64,000 nucleotides of DNA from positions 372,001 through 436,000 of the forward strand of contig AP026125.1 in the NCBI GenBank assembly GCA_030295235.1. Direction: 5' to 3'. The DNA is from Fistulifera solaris (taxonomy: Eukaryota). Shown piece after piece: positions 50,448 through 60,938 of this stretch. Numbering within the stretch: the first letter of the stretch is position 1; every line of letters starts with the position of its first letter. The position numbers and the translations under genes were made by a program. The notes beneath the pieces are model-generated. The model saw only the letters and a list, made by a program, of their open reading frames with translations, ran no database searches and was not told where the DNA came from.

Positions 50448-52328
50448 TTACAAAAGGTGTCGACGATTCCATGTTCGAAGAACTTCATGCTCGGCAAAAT
50501 AGGCAGCCTTGCGGCGCTCGTAATCCCCCTCCATATCGTAGTTTCATTTCTCGAAGCTTCCCCAGTGTGCGCTCCGAATCATCGTACTCCTCCTTTAATG
50601 GCGTTGTATTCGGATGAATCGAAAGGAAGATGTTCACCAAGGCAGTAGTACTAACGGAGGACACAAACTTGTTTTTCTACCTCTTGGCCACAGTCCGTAT
50701 ATCCGCTCTGTCCCTTATCTACGGCGGTAGCATCTAAAGCCCACCCGGTAGCACCATCGATGCATTCTAGAGAACCATTGGTAATCGATGTAATTGTGGG
50801 CAACTCTTCGGTACCGAGCCACCACGCAAACGATAAGCTGGAGTGGAAACGCACATCCTGGCCGGGATTGTCCGGATCCGTTTCGACAACGCCCTCCTCA
50901 TCGAGATAGACGGATGTACCCATTATCACGGGATGCTTGACTGTTATTTTGTCAATAATTGTACCGTCGTTATTGCATACGCTGCTGATATTCGATCCAT
51001 TGTCGTTCCGGATTTGCTTGGCTCGATGATCGCATTTGGATCGTTTCAGTGCATACGACCCTACCGCACGACAACATACGGCGCGTCGACAGGTGATCGC
51101 ACTCAGTTTTCTACCCACCGTCAACGTTTCTGGAACAATGCTTTTTTCTAAAAACGATGAAAGTAGAGAACCCTGCCACCCTAATATGTTCCATCTCAGC
51201 AACTTGTCGGAACAAGTGTGCAAAGAACCTTTTCCTGAAAACAGTGTCGTTGTGCCGGCGGGGCACCAATTTGTTTCACAGTTCGACGGCCAGGATTGTT
51301 GCTTCGGACTCAGTAATTCCATCTTTCTCTTTTCCAAAGCGATTTGCTCTTCTGAGGAGATTACGTGTCCTTTGTCCTCTTTCAGTAACAGAGAAAACTC
51401 TCCTTGCGAGATGGCGTGTCCGGGTATAGCTTCGTGATGACAAGTCGGCCACTCATCGGGGCCTAAATCGTCTCGAAACACCTCTTTTCGACAAGTTACA
51501 AAACGCTTCAGCACGGCATTCCCACAGGGAGCCGATGAAGTATAGCAGTGCAACGTGATGTGCGGGTTCAGTTTGTACAATGGAAGTTTCGTCGTAGTAT
51601 TATTGTCAGCGTCTTCCGTGAATTGAGACTTTTCAAGAATTACCATGCCGAACGGGTCTTTCTGAGCATCTGGCTTTTTTACTTTCCTATCGTTCAGGAT
51701 CTGAAGAGATAAATAACGGCGCAAGGCCCTCCTCGCCAGGACTTCGGCATGACAATCACGGACTCGATCCCCATACTGCGACGAAGCGCTTTCGCCCGCC
51801 AGTAGGGAATTCGAAAGAAACTTGGTACCCACTCCCATGGCAATGACCCGCAATTCCTTGGTCAAGCCATGATGTGCCACAATGGTCGCTACGCACGTCT
51901 GTTTTTGCTCATGGCGGAAGCTCTCGGGGACGACCATGTGATAGTGATCGACGGAAAGTTGTGCAATGCGATCCGCAAACGCGCAGGTCGATGTGCGGCG
52001 CTTTTCGGCATGACGAACCGCGCGACGTTGATCGCCTTGTTCCTTGCCTTGCATCGAAAGGAAGTTAACCTGGGTATTTCGATATCGTTTTAGGGGAGAC
52101 GAGTCCTTTTTGACAAAAATGAGACGCCGACAAATGTGTCGCGGTCGGCAGTTCCCGGGACTGGATTTGAGTTATAAGTCGAAATAAGTCAGACCACTTA
52201 ACTTGTTCCTGGATAGCGTCCCTCAGTGCTGCTACGACATGGTGGGATCGATAGGGCGACTTTTTTCGCATCAACGCGACATGATGATGCGATGTTGTTG
52301 TTGTCCTCGTCGCCGTCTCACGATGCAT
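50448..52328 (-). CDS. ADAT1/ADAR-family adenosine deaminase domain protein, no dsRBD seen (frameshifts near 52070, 50660 and 50525)
   Basis: VIAMGVGTK, DCHAEVLARR, SSAPCGNA and TCSDKLLRWNILGWQGSLLS. The C-terminus ..YERRK..WNRRHLL is read across frames. Confidence 0.85.
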
Positions 52329-52393: not shown

Positions 52394-55300
52394 ATGTCAA
52401 ACTCTACACTTTCGTTAGTTCCGAGTGCTCCCAAGGCGACAGCACAAGTAAGGGAAGGTCGCGTCCTCGAAGGGACAAGTAACAATGAGGAAGGTCAGCA
52501 ATCATCCGGTGAAGACGTACTCGACTTTATTGGTAGCAGTCCTGCATTTAAGCAACTGTTTTCTTTACCCTATTCTTTGGAGCAGTCTGTGAGTGTGGCG
52601 ATTCACAATTTAGGTGACACGCTTCTGCTCGACCTAGACCCTGGAGATCAGGAAATTGTAAAGGAATGTGGTGACACCGGAAAAGTGACCATTCATTGAG
52701 CAAAGATAGCTTGTCTCAAGCACTGGTCACGCTATCCGAAGCAGAGCCCCAGAATGAAGCGATTACACTAGTTCATTCTCTTATCGAGTCGACGCAACCT
52801 ATCTCCAAAAGAAAGGAAAGAATTGTCGGTGTTCCCTATCCCGAAGACCAGATTGCCCGCTTCATTTCGACTCCAAATGACCCTCGCGAGTATTTGTCGT
52901 GGAAATTTCGAAACATGAACCTTCTGGTTGGCTCCGATGCCTTTGTGTATCGCCCGCCGGAAGATCACGCAGCCGGTGTTTCCGTCCGCATCGAAGATGT
53001 TCAGCTGCTTCAGTCGCAAATTCAGCTGCATCAAGAAATGCAATCCAAAAGCGAACGAGACAAGTTGTCGTATGCACAAGTTACGGCTCGATCATTACCT
53101 CAATTAGAGCAAGGCAACAACACAGAACTAAGCGAAAGCAAGTGTCAAGACGCTGTCGAGTCGGTTGAGGAGAAACAACCTTCTGGAGCCGAATCGGATC
53201 AACTGCGACTTCAATCTTGTTTAGTTTCATCGCCAAGTGTACCAATAGGCTCTTTGCTCTCCCAGAAACCCGTATTGCGGGGCGAATCGCCCCACAGCTC
53301 ACCGATATCGACGGTGTTAGATGTCTACCTGGACAATATTATGGCGAATGTTCCGCAACTCGCCTTGTGCTTACAAGACAAGGGCTTCGTACAAAGTGTG
53401 AAGCTGTTAAATACCGATCAGATTCCGTCCACCTTACTCCAGCCGTCGACACTCGACACCTCCATTCCTTTTCAAGTGTTACACGGAGCGGACGATGCGG
53501 AGCGAATCTTTTCACCCGAAGTCATGGAAATGAATGCGTCCACGCTTCTGGGCTTTTTGAAAGCCCAATGTACCAAAGACAGCACTACCTATTTATTGAG
53601 GAGAGAGGCGGGCGAAACCGCGATTCAGTTGTATGATATATCGGCGATTAGCACGCAGCGGCAACAAAAGTGGAATTGGTGGCTGGCGATGATGTCGTAC
53701 CGTTTTGCTCATCGGTTACGCTCTCTTTCCACTCAGACGGGTGATAAGGCCCTGAGTCGAAGTTTTCGGGCACGGCAAAGAAGCCTGCTGACCACTTCTT
53801 TGGAGCTACTGGACGCGCTGGCGGATATGAACGGCAAAACCCACGAAAGTCTCCTTTCGGCGATCCGAGAAAATTTAGCGGATTCGTTTTTGGGAGGTAC
53901 GGTTGATGATACTATTGAACCAGCGGAGAGCAAAAACCAACATTTAGGTGGTATAGACGCTTTGCGGCATCAACCCTACTCAAGCGTATCCTTGGATGCT
54001 TTGAACAAGTCTCACGACCATTTGGTTGAAGCCATACGAATACTCTGGCCCTCGCTTGAACGGAATGTGAAGATGAAAAAGCGGAATGATCGGAGCCGAG
54101 CTTTTGCGTCAAAAAAGCCGTCTTCAGTCAAAGTTGAATCGGTGGACATTGATGACGATTCAAGTGGTGATGACGAAAATGTGGCTGCAATGGACTTGGA
54201 TGTTATCGATCCAGTCGTGTCACAGCTCTTTGGATTGCATGAAAAGCTGGTGGATGTACTGTTGCGACTTGCCGAAATTCATCTGCAAAATTATTATTCG
54301 TCTAGTGCGATGCAGACACTGCGATCCGCAGCCCGTCGTATTTCCGACTCTTTATATCTAACTAATCTTATTGCGGAAAAATCAGAGAAGGCATCCAAGT
54401 GGCTTGACATTCTCCAGCTCCAGAATGCTTGGCTGTGGGAGCACTGCGGTCACTTTGCCCGTACCTTTGCCATGGACGAGCTATGGCGCGACCGGGGACA
54501 TGCGTCTGGTGATGATGTGGTCAGTGTGATTTTAGACGTTGATTCTGCATTGAAGCACGGCGACATTCTTTTAGATCTCACAATCAAGAAATCGCAGCGC
54601 TACGAAATCCCATTGATTCGCTATTCGAAAAATCGGGAGGGGCAATAGGCTTGGATAACTTGAGTGGAGTGGCTGATGTTAGTGCAGATGGTTCACCGCT
54701 ATCCGAAGTATGCATAAGGGATGCGATCGAACTTCTGAACAAGCAACGTCTTTTGCAAAGAGAGCATAGAAGAGTTTTGGTGCTTTCGTCCATCGCGTAT
54801 GGAAGGGCTATAGCATCTTACAAACTGGCTTCATTGTCGAACGATTCAGGACAGTATCTTGCTTTGCTTCAGCAACGGTTAGGTGACGCATGCAACGAAA
54901 CTGGCAAGGCGATGATGGACGAAGTTCGTCGTTTGCTGACCGCAGGTACTTTATCAAGTGCCGTCGAAGCATTATTACGCTCTGCCGAATTTTGGTTTCG
55001 AGAAGGTCTGACTGTTTTTGAAACGTGCAACGACTTGCGAAATGCCGCATTACTGCGATGCAATCTGTGTCAGTGCTCAAAACTCCGTGCTAACGCGATG
55101 TTGGCACCTTCAGAAGGAACGGGGAATCACGCGGAAAAATGTCTACAGGAGGCCGTCCATCAATTGCAGTCAGCGCACCAGAGTCTTGGACAGCGAGATA
55201 CCGATCCACCAACATGGGATATGGTCAGCAATGAACTGGCGGCGACCCTCTTAGTGCTAGGTGTCCGTCGTCGACAATCGTTGATGGGCAATCTTCCCGT

Positions 55301-55940
55301 ACTGGTACGCCGTCTGTCTCCTGGTGAAGAACGCTCTGTGTTTGAGCCGATGGAGAATGCTTTGACCATTTATGAGCGAGCTAGAAACTACCATCAAGCT
55401 GCTGCTGTCCACTATCAATTAGCACTCTTCTACACCAAAATATGGACCTGTCAAAGGAATGAGACTAAGACACGCGAAAAGTTATCTGCGGCATTTTCTC
55501 ATTTCCACGCATCCTACAATTTCTTTTCACAAAACGTACATGGAAACGAACCGACATTTTGCTTGCTATGTCTCGATCTTTGTCAATTGTATTCCAGTGT
55601 ATCTGGGGAGGAGGGTCTTCTTCAGGCTCTGTCTCGTTGTCTGGATACTGCTGTGGCTTTTTCGATCCGATCGTATGCCGCGCAACATACCAAATCATCC
55701 CCACAAGAGCTTTCGTTGTGGCTTAGTCAGATGGTAACTTTGGCTGATTCTGTGGAAGAACGGGTGTTTAAAATTCTCCGAACTCTCATCAAATCCGACG
55801 AAACTGGAAAGTACAAGGAATGGTATCGGGTAGGTCTTTCTTGCAAAACCCGAGGCAGTGTCGATGCATCTTTAGACCCTGAAGTGCAGAAGCTGCAGAG
55901 TTTACATTCGCTACTTGAAAGCATTAAGGGAATGATGTGA
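52394..55940 (+). CDS. EDRF1-like protein with C-terminal TPR-like helices (frameshifts near 52690 and 54580-54650)
   Basis: [58 protein letters not shown] and [23 protein letters not shown]...IQLYD match the EDRF1 N-terminal pattern. Confidence 0.78.
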
Positions 55941-56009
55941 CTGTAGATAAAATCAATCATGTACAATTAGTGTTTAAACCATTCAAATAGTTCTAAAATA
56001 TCATTGAAG

Positions 56010-57308
56010 CTACTCTTCTGGAAATAGCGCAATTTTCCTCGAAGCGGGTGTAAGCGTATTTTCTCCTCCCTTGAGACCTTCCAACCCATACTGTTTTAAG
56101 ACTTGGATGGTATCTTTTAACCGCAACTCATTTTCTTCTTCTCCTGCCGTGTCATATAGTTGCTGCAGAGACACTCCGATATGACTAGCTAATGATTTCA
56201 GAATTTGCACATCTTGCTGTGAAAAGGGTCGCGGCCTGTTCCTGTCTTCCACCATCCATGGTTGTTGTTGCTGTTCATCTCCTGCTTGGCCCTTTCCGAC
56301 TTTGTTGATAGCTTGCAAAACGGCAATTGTTTTTCCGTTCCCATCCAACACCGGCACACAAATCATCGTCTCTGCATCTTTGGCCGTCTCACTATCCCAG
56401 TCGGGCTCTTCACGAACATGATCAATCTTCCACGCTTCTCCCGTGAGCGCCGCCCGTGATACAATCCCCCGTCCCAACGGAATCCGGGTCTTTTGGTCAC
56501 TAATCTTGGCGTACAAGTATTTGCCGTGCGGCGTCGGTGTCGTCGACGTTTGTGCGTCTTGCACTTGAATGTAGAGTCGCATTTTCTGCGCTCCGACCAA
56601 ACTCCCGGCTTCTTGAACCACATCCCGAAAGATGGCATCGAGATGCGCTTCTTGTTTCTTAACTTTGACTTTGTTGGGATCCATCCACAAGAGAGGAAAC
56701 ATGCCGATGATACATCCAATCACCAGTCCGACGCCGCACCCGAGTTGATTCGCGAAGCGGACACTCCGCAATTGTCGTTGTGCGGCCGTCAAATTGGCCG
56801 TGGGCATATTCAGTTGCGCGGCCATGTCTTCCACGACCGTCCCGAGCATAATTCCGGCCACATCCGACACAATATTCCCAATGGCGGCCGCACACATGGT
56901 CGAGATCCCCAAAACAACTCCCAGACTGGTATCAATGGCGTCCCCGGCAATAATGAGAATCGAATTGTCCATAATTCCGAATCCAACAAAGGGAATGGCG
57001 TTATTCAGAGCCACAAGACGAAGTTGTTCGTAGGTTGGTTCGGGTGCATCGCCGAGTGTCGTCGTCAAGGGCTGTGGCGAAAGTGTCGCCAGGCGCGACG
57101 ACAGGGCTTGTTGTTGTGGGACGGTCAGTGATTCGATCCAGGCGTGGAGTAAAGGACTGCTGTTCGTACTGGTCTCTCCCAAGAGTTGTTGTTGCACTTT
57201 TAAGGCATTTTGCTGCGAAGTTGTCAAAGAACGCTGCTTCCGTCTCATCGACGGAGGAGTCCATTTTCGACGAACATGAGGCGATGAGACCCACCCACGC
57301 CGCAGCAT
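56010..57308 (-). CDS. TMEM65-domain membrane protein fused to a C-terminal GAF domain, with mitochondrial-type presequence
   Basis: TMEM65 signature AIPFVGFGIMDNSILIIAGDAID..LGISTMCAAAIGNIVSDVAG..GCIIGMFPL. GAF: RIPLGRGIVSRAALTGE, MICVPV..VLQAINK and PFSQQDVQIL. Arg-rich, acid-free N-terminus MLRRGWVSSPHVRRKW. Confidence 0.85.
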   Translation of the reverse strand: MLRRGWVSSPHVRRKWTPPSMRRKQRSLTTSQQNALKVQQQLLGETSTNSSPLLHAWIESLTVPQQQALSSRLATLSPQPLTTTLGDAPEPTYEQLRLVALNNAIPFVGFGIMDNSILIIAGDAIDTSLGVVLGISTMCAAAIGNIVSDVAGIMLGTVVEDMAAQLNMPTANLTAAQRQLRSVRFANQLGCGVGLVIGCIIGMFPLLWMDPNKVKVKKQEAHLDAIFRDVVQEAGSLVGAQKMRLYIQVQDAQTSTTPTPHGKYLYAKISDQKTRIPLGRGIVSRAALTGEAWKIDHVREEPDWDSETAKDAETMICVPVLDGNGKTIAVLQAINKVGKGQAGDEQQQQPWMVEDRNRPRPFSQQDVQILKSLASHIGVSLQQLYDTAGEEENELRLKDTIQVLKQYGLEGLKGGENTLTPASRKIALFPEE

Positions 57309-58020
57309 GTTTTCCTTTGTTTCGTTATTGCTTTGCCTGTATTGGGAAACGCTCTTTCTATCGTTAGCCTTTAATTGGGTGGGTGGTCGGCATCTCCGTA
57401 ACGCCAGCGACGGGTGTGCCTGTTGCTGTTCTTTTTGCAACACTTCGGTTTTTGCGCGGATCTTTCCTTCCTCCGGGTTGCCCTTCATAAGGATCATGGG
57501 TGACATCACTTAAGGTTACAGTACAAGACTTAAATCTTTTACCGTACATCATGAATCATGAATCATGACCAATACGGAATACGAAAGAGTGAACTTTTCT
57601 CATTACAGTGTATTGAGAGCTCATTGAAAATAGTGCTCGTTCTAGTATGAATTTTTGTCAAGGGCTAGGCTTGCAAATGGACTGGAAGTTCGGTCTAGTA
57701 AACACTCCGATTCATGACTGAAATCCAGTCGTGGCAAAGGTCGCTCACACTTTGGGCCCGTACATTGTACAGTAGTAGGTACAGCAACACCCAGCCGCAT
57801 TCAGGTTTTTGACGAAATATGAAGCGTACATCAGGAAAGTGCTGATAATGTTTTTCATGTTGTCAGATGATATATAGTTGCTTATTACAAATTAGCTTGA
57901 GAATGGACGGCAATAGTCGAGTTTATTCTGGCTCTAAGAGAGATGCTGATAATTCATGACTGACTTGAAGCCTGTCACGAGACTTAGGCTCATACTTAGC
58001 TATATGTATACAGTTGACAC

Positions 58021-58292: not shown

Positions 58293-60938
58293 ATGTCGAC
58301 GAAGAAAGATACATTCACGATCGGTGCCGCCGCCAAGCGAGAACTCCGTCGCACCCTCAAACGAAGTACCGATCCAGCGTCCACCATCCAAACCTTTCAA
58401 CGCGATCATTCGTTGCATACAATGATGGCGCGGGCGTTGGGAACGACACCGCGGCACGAGCTTACCGACGTCGGAGCTGCGATAGAATCGTTGGATACGG
58501 ACTCGGTCATGACATTCTTGTCGCATTTGGGTCTTTCGCAATACGAAATCCACAAACGCATTTCGGATACCTTGCTACAAACATTAGAAGAAGAGATCCG
58601 CAAATCGAATTCCACGGAACCTCTACTGCATTTACTTCAAGCTTGTTGGCCGTACGTCACCGTCGTAACGGAATTGCGACCGATTTTGTGGTCGTTGTTA
58701 CGGCAACTCGGGGATCGGACACCGGTAGCGGTCTTACAAGCGCTCGGAGAACGAGCTCCCGATGGAACTTGCAAACATGCGGAGCTGTTTCAACAGTTGG
58801 ATGGACATTTGAAACGACTGTGTTGGGAAACGGACTGGGATAGCCGGGAAGCGTCGTACGAAACAACCTTGCTCTATCAAACGATACACCCCATTGTCGA
58901 ACAGTATTGTCGAAATGATACCTTGGTCGCACAAGCCAATCTACCGTTTGTGGCGACGACTCGCGAACGCAGTGTTCTGACATCACAGCGAAGGGCGTTG
59001 ACGTCGTCTTCTTCCTCAACGGCGGCACCCACGAATTTTCTTCGTCACAATAAAACCGACAAAGCCACACCGACCTACGCTACGGGCAAGCACATTGCGA
59101 AACTACGCACCTTATTATCCGATCGGACCGGATCATCGGTATCGTATCGACCCAAACTACTGCACGCACTCTTGTCCATTCTCATGGCGCAGCATGCGCT
59201 CTGTCCAGTACCATTTCTCGGAGGGGCGCAACATTTGCATTGCACACTGGTAGCCGATCTGCTCTTGTCGGCCGGTGGATCTCTGCCTACGGCGTATCAT
59301 TCCGTGGTCATTCTAGCGGGTATCTTGGACGAATGTGTGCAACAGGGAGCGGTCAGTGACGAGGCTTTGGTTCAAATTCAGACCAATTTGGTGACCATTT
59401 TTCAGTCGAACGCGGATGCCAATGTGCAGGAGGAGGAGATCCAGGAAACGAAAGAAGACGAGAGTAGCAACAAGAAAGAGGATGTCGTGACGACCAATGC
59501 CGAAATCCGACAACTCAATCGTCTTTTGACGGCCGGATTGAATGCCATGAAAGAAGCCGATCCGCAAAACTTGTTCCTCAATCCTGTGACAGACGCAATT
59601 GCACCGGGGTATAGCAAAGTCATTCGAAAGCCCATGTGCATTATAACCATGCAAGAGAATATTGCCAAGAACCGTTACAACAACATTGCCGAATGGGAAT
59701 CGGATGTCAATCTCATGTTCAAGAACTGTATCGATTACAATCGTGGCAGTGCAGGCCAGTGGTTTCGTGGCGAAGCACAACGGCAAGGAACCATATTTCG
59801 CGACGAGATTCTTCCGCAAGCGAAGCGTCTTTTCCAACAGGAAATCGTCAAACGATCCGCACTCGAAGCCGAGGCGGGGAAACGACGGGCCGAAGAACCC
59901 TTGGTAAAACCCATGAAGGCATCGTCGAAAAAGCGCAAAATAGATCCTACCGATTCCCTTCCCAGCATGCCGGCACTCGCATCTATGTTGCTATCGGATC
60001 CTTTTGTGGTCCGCGTCCTCTTGGCGCGCGTGTTGCGAGACTTGCGGCATGGAGTATTACCTGGGAACTCCATCCCGGCGGTTCATGCGGTGATTCCCTC
60101 GGTGTTACAGATTTTGAACATTGCCCGTTCTTCCACCCAGCTTTGCGCGAGTCGCGGACGAAAATACTATGTTCCGGATGCGGGAATCGAGTCACCGAAG
60201 GATGCAGCAGCCATGGTCTCGTACGCGTCTTTGCGGCAAGTCCTTCCTCTCCTTCTCCGTCTAATGACGCAAGCTGAGTTACAGAAACGAGTGACACAAG
60301 GAGGGGAACTTTACGCCGCAGCCCAAGTATCACCTCATATACAATTCAAGCCGATTTCGGTGGAGCATTGGAAAGGCGTCGACGATGTACAAGTAGTCGC
60401 GGCAATCGTTTCCGGAGCCATCGTTCTGTTTTGTCAACCTGGTAGTGGCTATGAGGTGGCGTTGGTATCGATATTCCCACATCTCGCGGCTTCTCTACAA
60501 GCCTTGTCTTCTGCGAAGCTGGAGCCGGTTTTTCTCAAGTGCTTGCTGCACATGATTTTACGACACCGAACGAAACTCCAGAAACCAGTACGAGATGTAA
60601 TTGTGCAATGCTGGATGGACTGGATTCGCGGGACACCAGAAGCTATGACATCAGCGACACACGAGTATTATGTCAAACTAGTGGCGGAGTGGTCTTTGTT
60701 GGGAAACTTGCTGCTGCCACGAGATACGCTTGTGGAGTTCCTTGGTAATGGCATTAAAACAGCAAGTGTTTCCGATAAGCGATCGCTTGCCTCGCTCTGG
60801 AATGACACAAAATTTCATTCTATCCGATTGGAGTACGAGCGAGTGCTAAAAATACTTCCAGAAAGTAGAGCAGCTGAATGGAAGCGAACAATGAACATTG
60901 AAGACGCAGCACCTGACGCTGAACTTTCGACATCATGA
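58293..60938 (+). CDS. NELF-B/COBRA1-like protein with an internal bromodomain, apparently intronless
   Basis: NELF-B-like blocks LRRTLKRSTDPASTIQTFQ, FLSHLGLSQYEIH, LLQACWPYV..ELRPILWSLLRQL, LKRLCWE, HCTLVADLLLS and ASMLLSDPFVV. Bromodomain LFLNPVTDAIAPGYSKVIRKPM..RY....W.SDVNLMFKNCIDYN. Confidence 0.8.
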   Translation: MSTKKDTFTIGAAAKRELRRTLKRSTDPASTIQTFQRDHSLHTMMARALGTTPRHELTDVGAAIESLDTDSVMTFLSHLGLSQYEIHKRISDTLLQTLEEEIRKSNSTEPLLHLLQACWPYVTVVTELRPILWSLLRQLGDRTPVAVLQALGERAPDGTCKHAELFQQLDGHLKRLCWETDWDSREASYETTLLYQTIHPIVEQYCRNDTLVAQANLPFVATTRERSVLTSQRRALTSSSSSTAAPTNFLRHNKTDKATPTYATGKHIAKLRTLLSDRTGSSVSYRPKLLHALLSILMAQHALCPVPFLGGAQHLHCTLVADLLLSAGGSLPTAYHSVVILAGILDECVQQGAVSDEALVQIQTNLVTIFQSNADANVQEEEIQETKEDESSNKKEDVVTTNAEIRQLNRLLTAGLNAMKEADPQNLFLNPVTDAIAPGYSKVIRKPMCIITMQENIAKNRYNNIAEWESDVNLMFKNCIDYNRGSAGQWFRGEAQRQGTIFRDEILPQAKRLFQQEIVKRSALEAEAGKRRAEEPLVKPMKASSKKRKIDPTDSLPSMPALASMLLSDPFVVRVLLARVLRDLRHGVLPGNSIPAVHAVIPSVLQILNIARSSTQLCASRGRKYYVPDAGIESPKDAAAMVSYASLRQVLPLLLRLMTQAELQKRVTQGGELYAAAQVSPHIQFKPISVEHWKGVDDVQVVAAIVSGAIVLFCQPGSGYEVALVSIFPHLAASLQALSSAKLEPVFLKCLLHMILRHRTKLQKPVRDVIVQCWMDWIRGTPEAMTSATHEYYVKLVAEWSLLGNLLLPRDTLVEFLGNGIKTASVSDKRSLASLWNDTKFHSIRLEYERVLKILPESRAAEWKRTMNIEDAAPDAELSTS

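Follow-up and report, generated by a model that had tools for sequence, protein, structure and literature searches.

The TMEM65-GAF gene and its surroundings

The window is a stretch of 64,000 nucleotides from the diatom Fistulifera solaris (contig AP026125.1, positions 372,001 to 436,000). On its minus strand, an intron-free ORF of 432 amino acids with no internal stop runs from 57308 to 56010 and joins a TMEM65 membrane domain to a GAF domain. The features of this gene are as follows.

56010..57308, minus strand: TMEM65-GAF gene, single exon, 432 amino acids plus stop (ORF scan; contigs of four runs free of joints)
57177..57308, minus strand: basic, acid-free N-terminus, residues 1-44, resembling a mitochondrial presequence (charge count; low pLDDT over residues 1-31)
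56679..57002, minus strand: TMEM65 domain, residues 103-210, three long helices (Pfam profile, model, alignment)
56643..56678, minus strand: helical linker of fixed length, residues 211-222, joining the last membrane helix to the GAF domain (spacing in fusions, model)
56166..56642, minus strand: GAF domain, residues 223-381, PDE/cyclase type (Pfam profile, model, alignment)
56367..56396, minus strand: alpha4 lid region, residues 305-314, shortened (model, alignment)
56013..56135, minus strand: C-terminal helix 392-413 and terminal LFPE motif (model, alignment; conserved in most of 88 diatom-clade proteins)
55973..56009, minus strand: 3' UTR with polyadenylation at 55973 (loose end of 23 T letters in one X4 contig)

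The earlier note had read these letters as one uninterrupted ORF with a mitochondrial-type presequence, a complete TMEM65 domain at about 56680-57040 and a GAF domain at about 56160-56640 that retains N-K..F..D residues, and each of these points holds, the presequence by a simple charge rule. The TMEM65 profile (PF10507) matches with 142.7 bits (cut-off 25, E 5.1e-42) over model positions 2-109 of 109, and the GAF profile (PF01590) with 48.1 bits (cut-off 22.4, E 2.2e-12), both in agreement with those positions. The architecture is also borne out by a family survey, in which 120 of the 120 homologues listed (of 348 matches) carry both domains.

The frame stays open above 57308 as far as an in-frame ATG at 57506. 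In a second genomic copy, located on another contig, the frame is closed by a stop 11 codons above the equivalent ATG, which makes 57308 the common start of both copies and rules out the longer ORF. Sequencing contigs from four runs of one study (X1-X4), their type guessed as RNA, show no splice joints across the gene, and the junction between the TMEM65 and GAF domains is spanned in three runs. Runs X2-X4 have no cover above 57313, which agrees weakly with the start at 57308, while X1 contigs extend into the gene flanks and X1 may be DNA. At the other end, one X4 contig shows polyadenylation at 55973, which is 37 bases beyond the stop codon. Among the matches listed, the closest named protein is F. 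solaris GAX09848.1 with 96% identity, and the N-terminus of the second copy reads like that of GAX09848.1, so the diatom gene is present as a pair. A chimera or mis-assembly is ruled out by the homologues with both domains, the second copy and the contig cover. The TMEM65-GAF gene is thus confirmed as real, neither a chance frame nor an assembly artefact.

Neighboring genes in the window encode a deaminase, an EDRF1-like protein, a bromodomain protein and an HDAC, with no functional link to TMEM65-GAF. The EDRF1-like gene (52915-55940, plus strand) extends over two frames with EDRF1_N and TPR_EDRF1 domains, is probably split by an intron and converges on the TMEM65-GAF gene so that their 3' ends almost abut. 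At 58293-60938 on the plus strand lies an 881-residue bromodomain protein whose N-terminal part may resemble NELF-B/COBRA1, a likeness that Pfam and PDB searches did not confirm.

Membrane core and predicted dimer

Three membrane helices are predicted for the TMEM65 domain (residues 93-133, 137-165 and 181-202; pLDDT 91 for the domain modelled alone), and a glycine zipper formed by G190, G194, G198 and G202 is invariant. For human TMEM65, PMC12830682 describes D132, D167, G170 and E178 as needed for activity. Their equivalents here are D114, D149, G152 and E160 at a constant offset of 18, and the same offset takes human G140, E144 and Q195 to G122, D126 and Q177. All seven mapped residues are conserved in 87-88 of 88 aligned relatives, which are diatom-clade proteins chosen from 121, and between the two genomic copies the TMEM65 domain has 19 silent and 0 amino acid differences. 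Collectively, these alignments support an intact ion-binding core. Human TMEM65 is an inner-membrane protein of mitochondria on which Na+-dependent Ca2+ efflux depends. The protein thus shares with animal TMEM65 (human, PF10507) the full PF10507 domain, the three helices, the presequence-like N-terminus and the four equivalent residues at the same spacing. It differs in that the short acidic tail of the animal protein is replaced by approximately 220 extra C-terminal residues with the GAF domain, and in that its host lineage lacks MCU, the calcium uniporter of mitochondria, and has three paralogous gene pairs.

A homodimer model of two copies of residues 86-412 scored 0.51 and the highest of its three controls 0.00, with a pLDDT of 68 and at least 85% of contacts shared among runs. 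In calibration, the dimer mark was attained by 21/30 solved homodimers and 0/23 single chains; for eukaryotes the figure was 17/29, and only 1/7 where no older solved relative exists. The confident interface lies entirely in the membrane part, where residues 114, 115, 145 and 149 of both chains meet at the two-fold axis, and there is no confident GAF-GAF contact, an absence that is weak in this part of the model. The model supports a predicted homodimer with a central cation site. Such a dimer fits with P0198, a natural single chain with two tandem TMEM65 domains that would be its covalent counterpart. No solved relative of the membrane domain was found at a Foldseek E below 0.001, the best structural match having a Z of 6.0 and an rmsd of 8.2 Å, which does not show that the fold is new. 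A possible likeness of this domain to VIT1 has no counterpart among the structure matches listed.

N-terminus and orientation in the membrane

Residues 1-30 comprise nine Arg/Lys and no Asp/Glu, the first acidic residue is at position 45, and the N-terminus is devoid of a hydrophobic signal core. Presequences were judged by a home-made charge rule rather than a trained predictor, and relatives were counted as full-length if a Met start lay at least 70 residues ahead of the TMEM65 domain. On this basis, the charge pattern occurs in 62 of 79 full-length relatives versus 2 of 28 long ORFs of the window, and a hydrophobic, signal-like N-terminus in 1 of the 79. By the charge rule, mitochondrial targeting of the TMEM65-GAF protein is likely.

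The orientation of the GAF domain may be borrowed from human TMEM65, whose C-terminal tag was digested by protease in intact mitoplasts, according to bioRxiv 2023.10.10.561661. Because that tag was exposed, the GAF domain should by analogy face the intermembrane space. Small cytosolic molecules get into this compartment.

The GAF domain and its pocket

When the family profile is compared with the PDB, CyaB2 (E 4.8e-25), PDE5 (1.2e-21), PDE10 and PDE2 rank first, and the nine best sequence matches are cyclase or PDE GAFs with the exception of one HD-GYP protein. The best structural match of the model is PDE2A residues 399-550 (1mc0; Z 19.2, rmsd 1.9 Å over 140 residues), with GAFs that do not bind cyclic nucleotides (cNMPs) near behind at Z 17.1-17.4. 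Sequence and model together support derivation from the PDE/cyclase type. In common with the cNMP GAFs of PDE2/5/6/10 and CyaB2 (1mc0, 3lfv, 2zmf, 1ykd), the domain has N-K-F-D, the GIV loop and the pocket floor. Unlike them, it is a single GAF that follows a membrane transporter core instead of preceding an enzyme, and its clade has lost both the Glu of the NKFDE motif and the alpha4 lid motif.

The incomplete NKFDE motif consists of N335 and K336 (QAINK) together with F362 and D366 (PFSQQD), the Glu having become V367. This Glu is found in 6/88 diatom-clade proteins (replaced in 82/88) versus 37/49 membrane-proximal GAFs of a wider set. The retained N-K..F..D had earlier been taken as a cue for a ligand; the residues are indeed present, but they are seen in nearly all GAFs aligned and make no ligand contact according to PMC11977230. 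In the same paper, single Ala changes in the NKFDE motif abolished cGMP binding by PDE2 GAF-B.

In comparison with PDE5, the alpha4 lid lacks four residues, and the model has no helix at 301-314. Lid motifs were counted as patterns, the form D-x-x-T-G-[YF] being taken from the PDE5 and CyaB2 alignments; it is missing here and present in 1/88 diatom-clade proteins versus 15/62 GAFs of the wider TMEM65-fusion set. A second lid type, H-x-[ND]-[YF], occurs in 16/62 wider-set GAFs, one domain falling in both counts. Across the clade, 15-40 residues separate the equivalents of P302 and C317, and no part of the GAF is less conserved than the lid (mean top-residue share 0.31 versus 0.74 for the core). 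Since position 332 in the pocket also varies among Q, R, K and E, a single ligand conserved throughout the clade is unlikely. In the CyaB2 lid, D356 and N359 contact the ligand, as PMC4411481 describes, and they have no conserved counterpart in the window clade.

By sequence-alignment mapping only, the base-contact residues R291, T293, I308 and T309 of CyaB2 correspond to K242, R244, I269 and S270. These positions on beta1/beta2 vary within the clade, the base-binding Thr293 being Arg in the window protein; most relatives are PDE-pocket-like, with an aromatic residue at 269 in 78/88 and Cys or Ser at 244 in 61/88. The floor is better preserved: V283, M315, C317, V330, Q332, I334 and F362 correspond to PDE5 V230, I266, C268, V281, Q283, I285 and F295, and the GIV(S) loop at G281-S284 is kept as in PDE5. 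Between the two genomic copies, the GAF domain has 7 amino acid versus 32 silent changes (pN/pS 0.064 by a crude count) and is under purifying selection.

Among distant members, Fragilariopsis OEU09347 (a diatom) and Amoebophrya CAD7959476 have a complete lid motif. The lid of Triparma looks intermediate, and Triparma is sister to the window clade in a quick TMEM65 tree (SH-aLRT 98). A cNMP-type pocket is therefore likely to be ancestral, still alive in other members and eroded in the window clade.

A fixed-length link between membrane core and GAF

Between the last position of the TMEM65 model and the first of the GAF model, 46/47 fusions have an identical spacing, and residues 211-238 form a single helix in the structure model. 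H376, on alpha5, is present in 46/49 membrane-proximal GAFs and 6/13 second GAFs, and His is not among the five commonest letters at this position in 9 PDE GAFs. In PDE5, the ligand signal exits the GAF via alpha2/alpha5, according to PMC11977230. By analogy, a rigid link from alpha2/alpha5 to the last membrane helix is proposed as the control route. Purifying selection and a fixed linker would suit a purely structural GAF equally well.

Family range and paralogues

Named members of the TMEM65-GAF family come from diatoms, Triparma (Parmales), Perkinsus, Amoebophrya and the holozoan Creolimax, and Atlas clusters add Chlorophyta and Apicomplexa with few labelled members. In a set of 71 proteins picked from 150 listed in a search seeded with the fusion, so that the counts are not natural frequencies, TMEM65 is present in 69 proteins and GAF in 59 of those 69; two GAF stretches occur in 17, C2 in 7, EF-hands in 5 and ankyrins in 2. 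Four TMEM65-GAF proteins (P0241, P0246, P0268 and P0272) have EF-hands, which in P0241 (Creolimax, CFRG6387T1) is inserted inside the GAF, and some proteins combine tandem GAFs with C2. With ACT, EF-hand, C2 or a second GAF on other members, sensor modules appear to have been joined repeatedly to the TMEM65 core. The non-metazoan TMEM65 orthologues with EF-hands mentioned in PMC13254257 are alike in placing a soluble sensor module on this core; they differ in that the window protein has a GAF and no EF-hand, and relatives such as Creolimax carry both.

The genome has six TMEM65 matches, forming three pairs. One pair (L003:1087-2049, minus strand, and L004; G000:C13 and C14) has a shortened GAF-like tail with no N-K-F-D, which has no Pfam GAF match and is GAF-like by Atlas features (0.91) and structure (TM 0.66). 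The other (L006:1054-1968, minus strand, and L005; G000:C3 and C4) has an ACT domain and a coiled tail. Its own ACT match is below the cut-off (E 2.6e-4); 22 of the 32 relatives give one at E <=0.01, and TMEM65-ACT is a conserved diatom family with 301 matches. The open frame of the L005 copy (G000:C4:2263265-2266588) lacks 30 N-terminal residues relative to that of its partner, and a 342-residue frame just upstream of it looks like a fragment of a Copia-type retrotransposon.

Both paralogue pairs lie inside a GAF-bearing branch (SH-aLRT 95) of the quick TMEM65 tree, in which 38/78 forks are open, and this nesting suggests that they arose by GAF decay and by replacement of GAF with ACT. The linker and the conserved His suggest that the fusion arose once, a point on which the trees do not decide. 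A quick tree of GAFs places the window clade, weakly, beside the GAFs of two protist PDEs (SH-aLRT 86), which were drawn in by the diatom profile itself; from this grouping, the GAF may have been swapped in the window clade.

Calcium handling in a lineage with no MCU

PMC11085791 reports MCU as missing from all diatoms examined, F. solaris included, and calls the diatom route of mitochondrial Ca2+ uptake unclear. A PF04678 (MCU) profile search of this genome gave no match, as did the controls, and the absence rests on PMC11085791. Mammalian TMEM65 was chosen as a candidate because its distribution follows that of MCU (bioRxiv 2023.10.10.561661). Diatoms break this co-distribution yet keep three sensor-bearing TMEM65 forms, and since they have no MCU, the window protein cannot be the efflux partner of MCU. 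Whether TMEM65 is an exchanger by itself is disputed. One mammalian study has TMEM65 depend on NCLX (bioRxiv 2023.10.06.561062), and other studies describe an exchange independent of NCLX. For the purified mammalian protein, Na+/Ca2+ exchange in liposomes has been reported, as cited in PMC13254257.

Proposed mechanism and alternative readings

From the observed domains, residues, conservation and selection, and from the modelled folds and dimer, we infer a location, topology, ion, allostery and ligand. The main reading, given a probability of about one half, is a sensor-regulated mitochondrial cation exchanger with a GAF that in this clade probably binds cAMP or cGMP weakly, if still at all. 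The protein would be imported into mitochondria and form an inner-membrane homodimer of three-helix TMEM65 cores, in which paired D114, N115, N145 and D149 would form a cation site at the centre, in analogy to the one inferred for the Na+/Ca2+ exchanger of animals. Its C-terminal GAF, located in the intermembrane space and in contact with cytosolic solutes, would tune transport via the fixed-length helix to the last membrane helix. An ancestral cAMP/cGMP-type GAF would have suffered erosion of its lid in the diatom clade and retained its pocket floor and coupling helices, for which reason binding of some other small molecule, or weak binding of cNMPs, seems likelier; for the window GAF itself, this part of the reading falls somewhat short of even odds. 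Since diatoms are without MCU, the exchanger would probably set matrix Ca2+/Na+ unaided, possibly also admitting Ca2+.

The earlier note had proposed cyclic-nucleotide or other small-molecule control of mitochondrial Ca2+/Na+ flux. The second alternative stands. Cyclic-nucleotide control gains from the descent of the GAF and loses from the missing NKFDE Glu and lid motif and the Arg at the position of Thr293, while the flux itself is in line with the intact ion-binding core, its possible role being altered by the absence of MCU that PMC11085791 reports.

One rival, somewhat unlikely, is that the GAF is ligand-free in this clade, serves within the intermembrane space as a cap, either structural or for protein docking, and stands partway to the degenerate GAF of the paralogue. 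An eroded lid of 15-40 residues, a paralogue in the same genome whose tail is invisible to Pfam GAF models, and the ability of animal TMEM65 to do without a GAF are what such a cap would lead one to expect. The well-conserved floor and GIVS loop are harder to reconcile with it, the invariant linker and H376 hint at coupled movement, and the docking of one GAF on another finds no confident contact in the dimer model, a weak absence.

An unlikely reading for the window protein is that its GAF is a proper cAMP/cGMP switch directly gating mitochondrial Na+/Ca2+ exchange. The CyaB2 and PDE GAFs as best sequence matches, PDE2A as best structural match, the preserved GIVS loop, floor and N-K-F-D, the PDE-like residues at 269 and 244 in most relatives and the complete lids of OEU09347 and CAD7959476 all speak for it. 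They are countered by a lid motif in 1/88 and an NKFDE Glu in 6/88 of the clade, by the sensitivity of PDE2 GAF-B to single NKFDE changes (PMC11977230), by the lost counterparts of CyaB2 D356/N359 with K242, R244, I269 and S270 at the base contacts, and by the structural nearness of non-cNMP GAFs. For the lid-intact relatives, the odds of a true cNMP switch are higher than for the window protein.

The core could handle cations other than Na+/Ca2+ or be a subunit of another carrier, with a GAF that may still sense. In diatoms with no MCU there is no known Ca2+ influx that needs balance (PMC11085791), and the NCLX-dependence of one mammalian study (bioRxiv 2023.10.06.561062) would agree with a subunit. 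This reading is doubtful, however, given that none of the four residues on which Ca2+ handling depends is lost, that liposome exchange is reported for the purified mammalian protein (cited in PMC13254257) and that the EF-hand and C2 modules of relatives point toward Ca2+. A place in plastid or secretory membranes, for which the complexity of plastid targeting in diatoms and a report of mammalian TMEM65 also at cardiac intercalated discs could be invoked, is very improbable with basic, acid-poor N-termini in 62/79 full-length relatives and a signal-like one in 1/79.

Beyond the sensor-regulated exchanger proposed for the window, an unlikely but broader reading joins the family together. TMEM65 would ancestrally be a GAF-gated, cNMP-controlled mitochondrial cation exchanger across eukaryotes, reduced to the bare core in animals and diversified into three sensor-tuned forms in MCU-less diatoms. 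The GAF, degenerate GAF and ACT forms would then provide a mitochondrial Ca2+ route controlled by second messengers or metabolites, possibly including uptake. This reading leans on the same-linker fusion in stramenopiles, alveolates and one holozoan.

Implications and annotation

The TMEM65-GAF design is widespread in single-celled eukaryotes and apparently unstudied. No paper on TMEM65 joined with a GAF domain, and no experiment on such a protein, was found in the literature searched. PMC12830682 does not mention GAF in its text or text supplements, nor do the text supplements of PMC13254257, and papers retrieved for TMEM65 with diatom or Toxoplasma were unrelated by title and abstract. With the control and identity of the mitochondrial Na+/Ca2+ exchanger in live dispute, and no ligand-sensing TMEM65 in the papers searched, a natural TMEM65 with a built-in sensor offers a handle on gating and on whether TMEM65 acts alone. 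It also makes Ca2+ handling by the mitochondria of MCU-less diatoms testable, and the lid-intact, lid-eroded, GAF-degenerate and ACT-bearing versions provide natural controls on one core.

Databases already tag the TMEM65-GAF architecture automatically. Many JGI records of TMEM65-GAF proteins are named 'tRNA-specific adenosine deaminase 1', an apparent mis-annotation; the genuine deaminase gene of the window lies at 50651-52054 on the minus strand.
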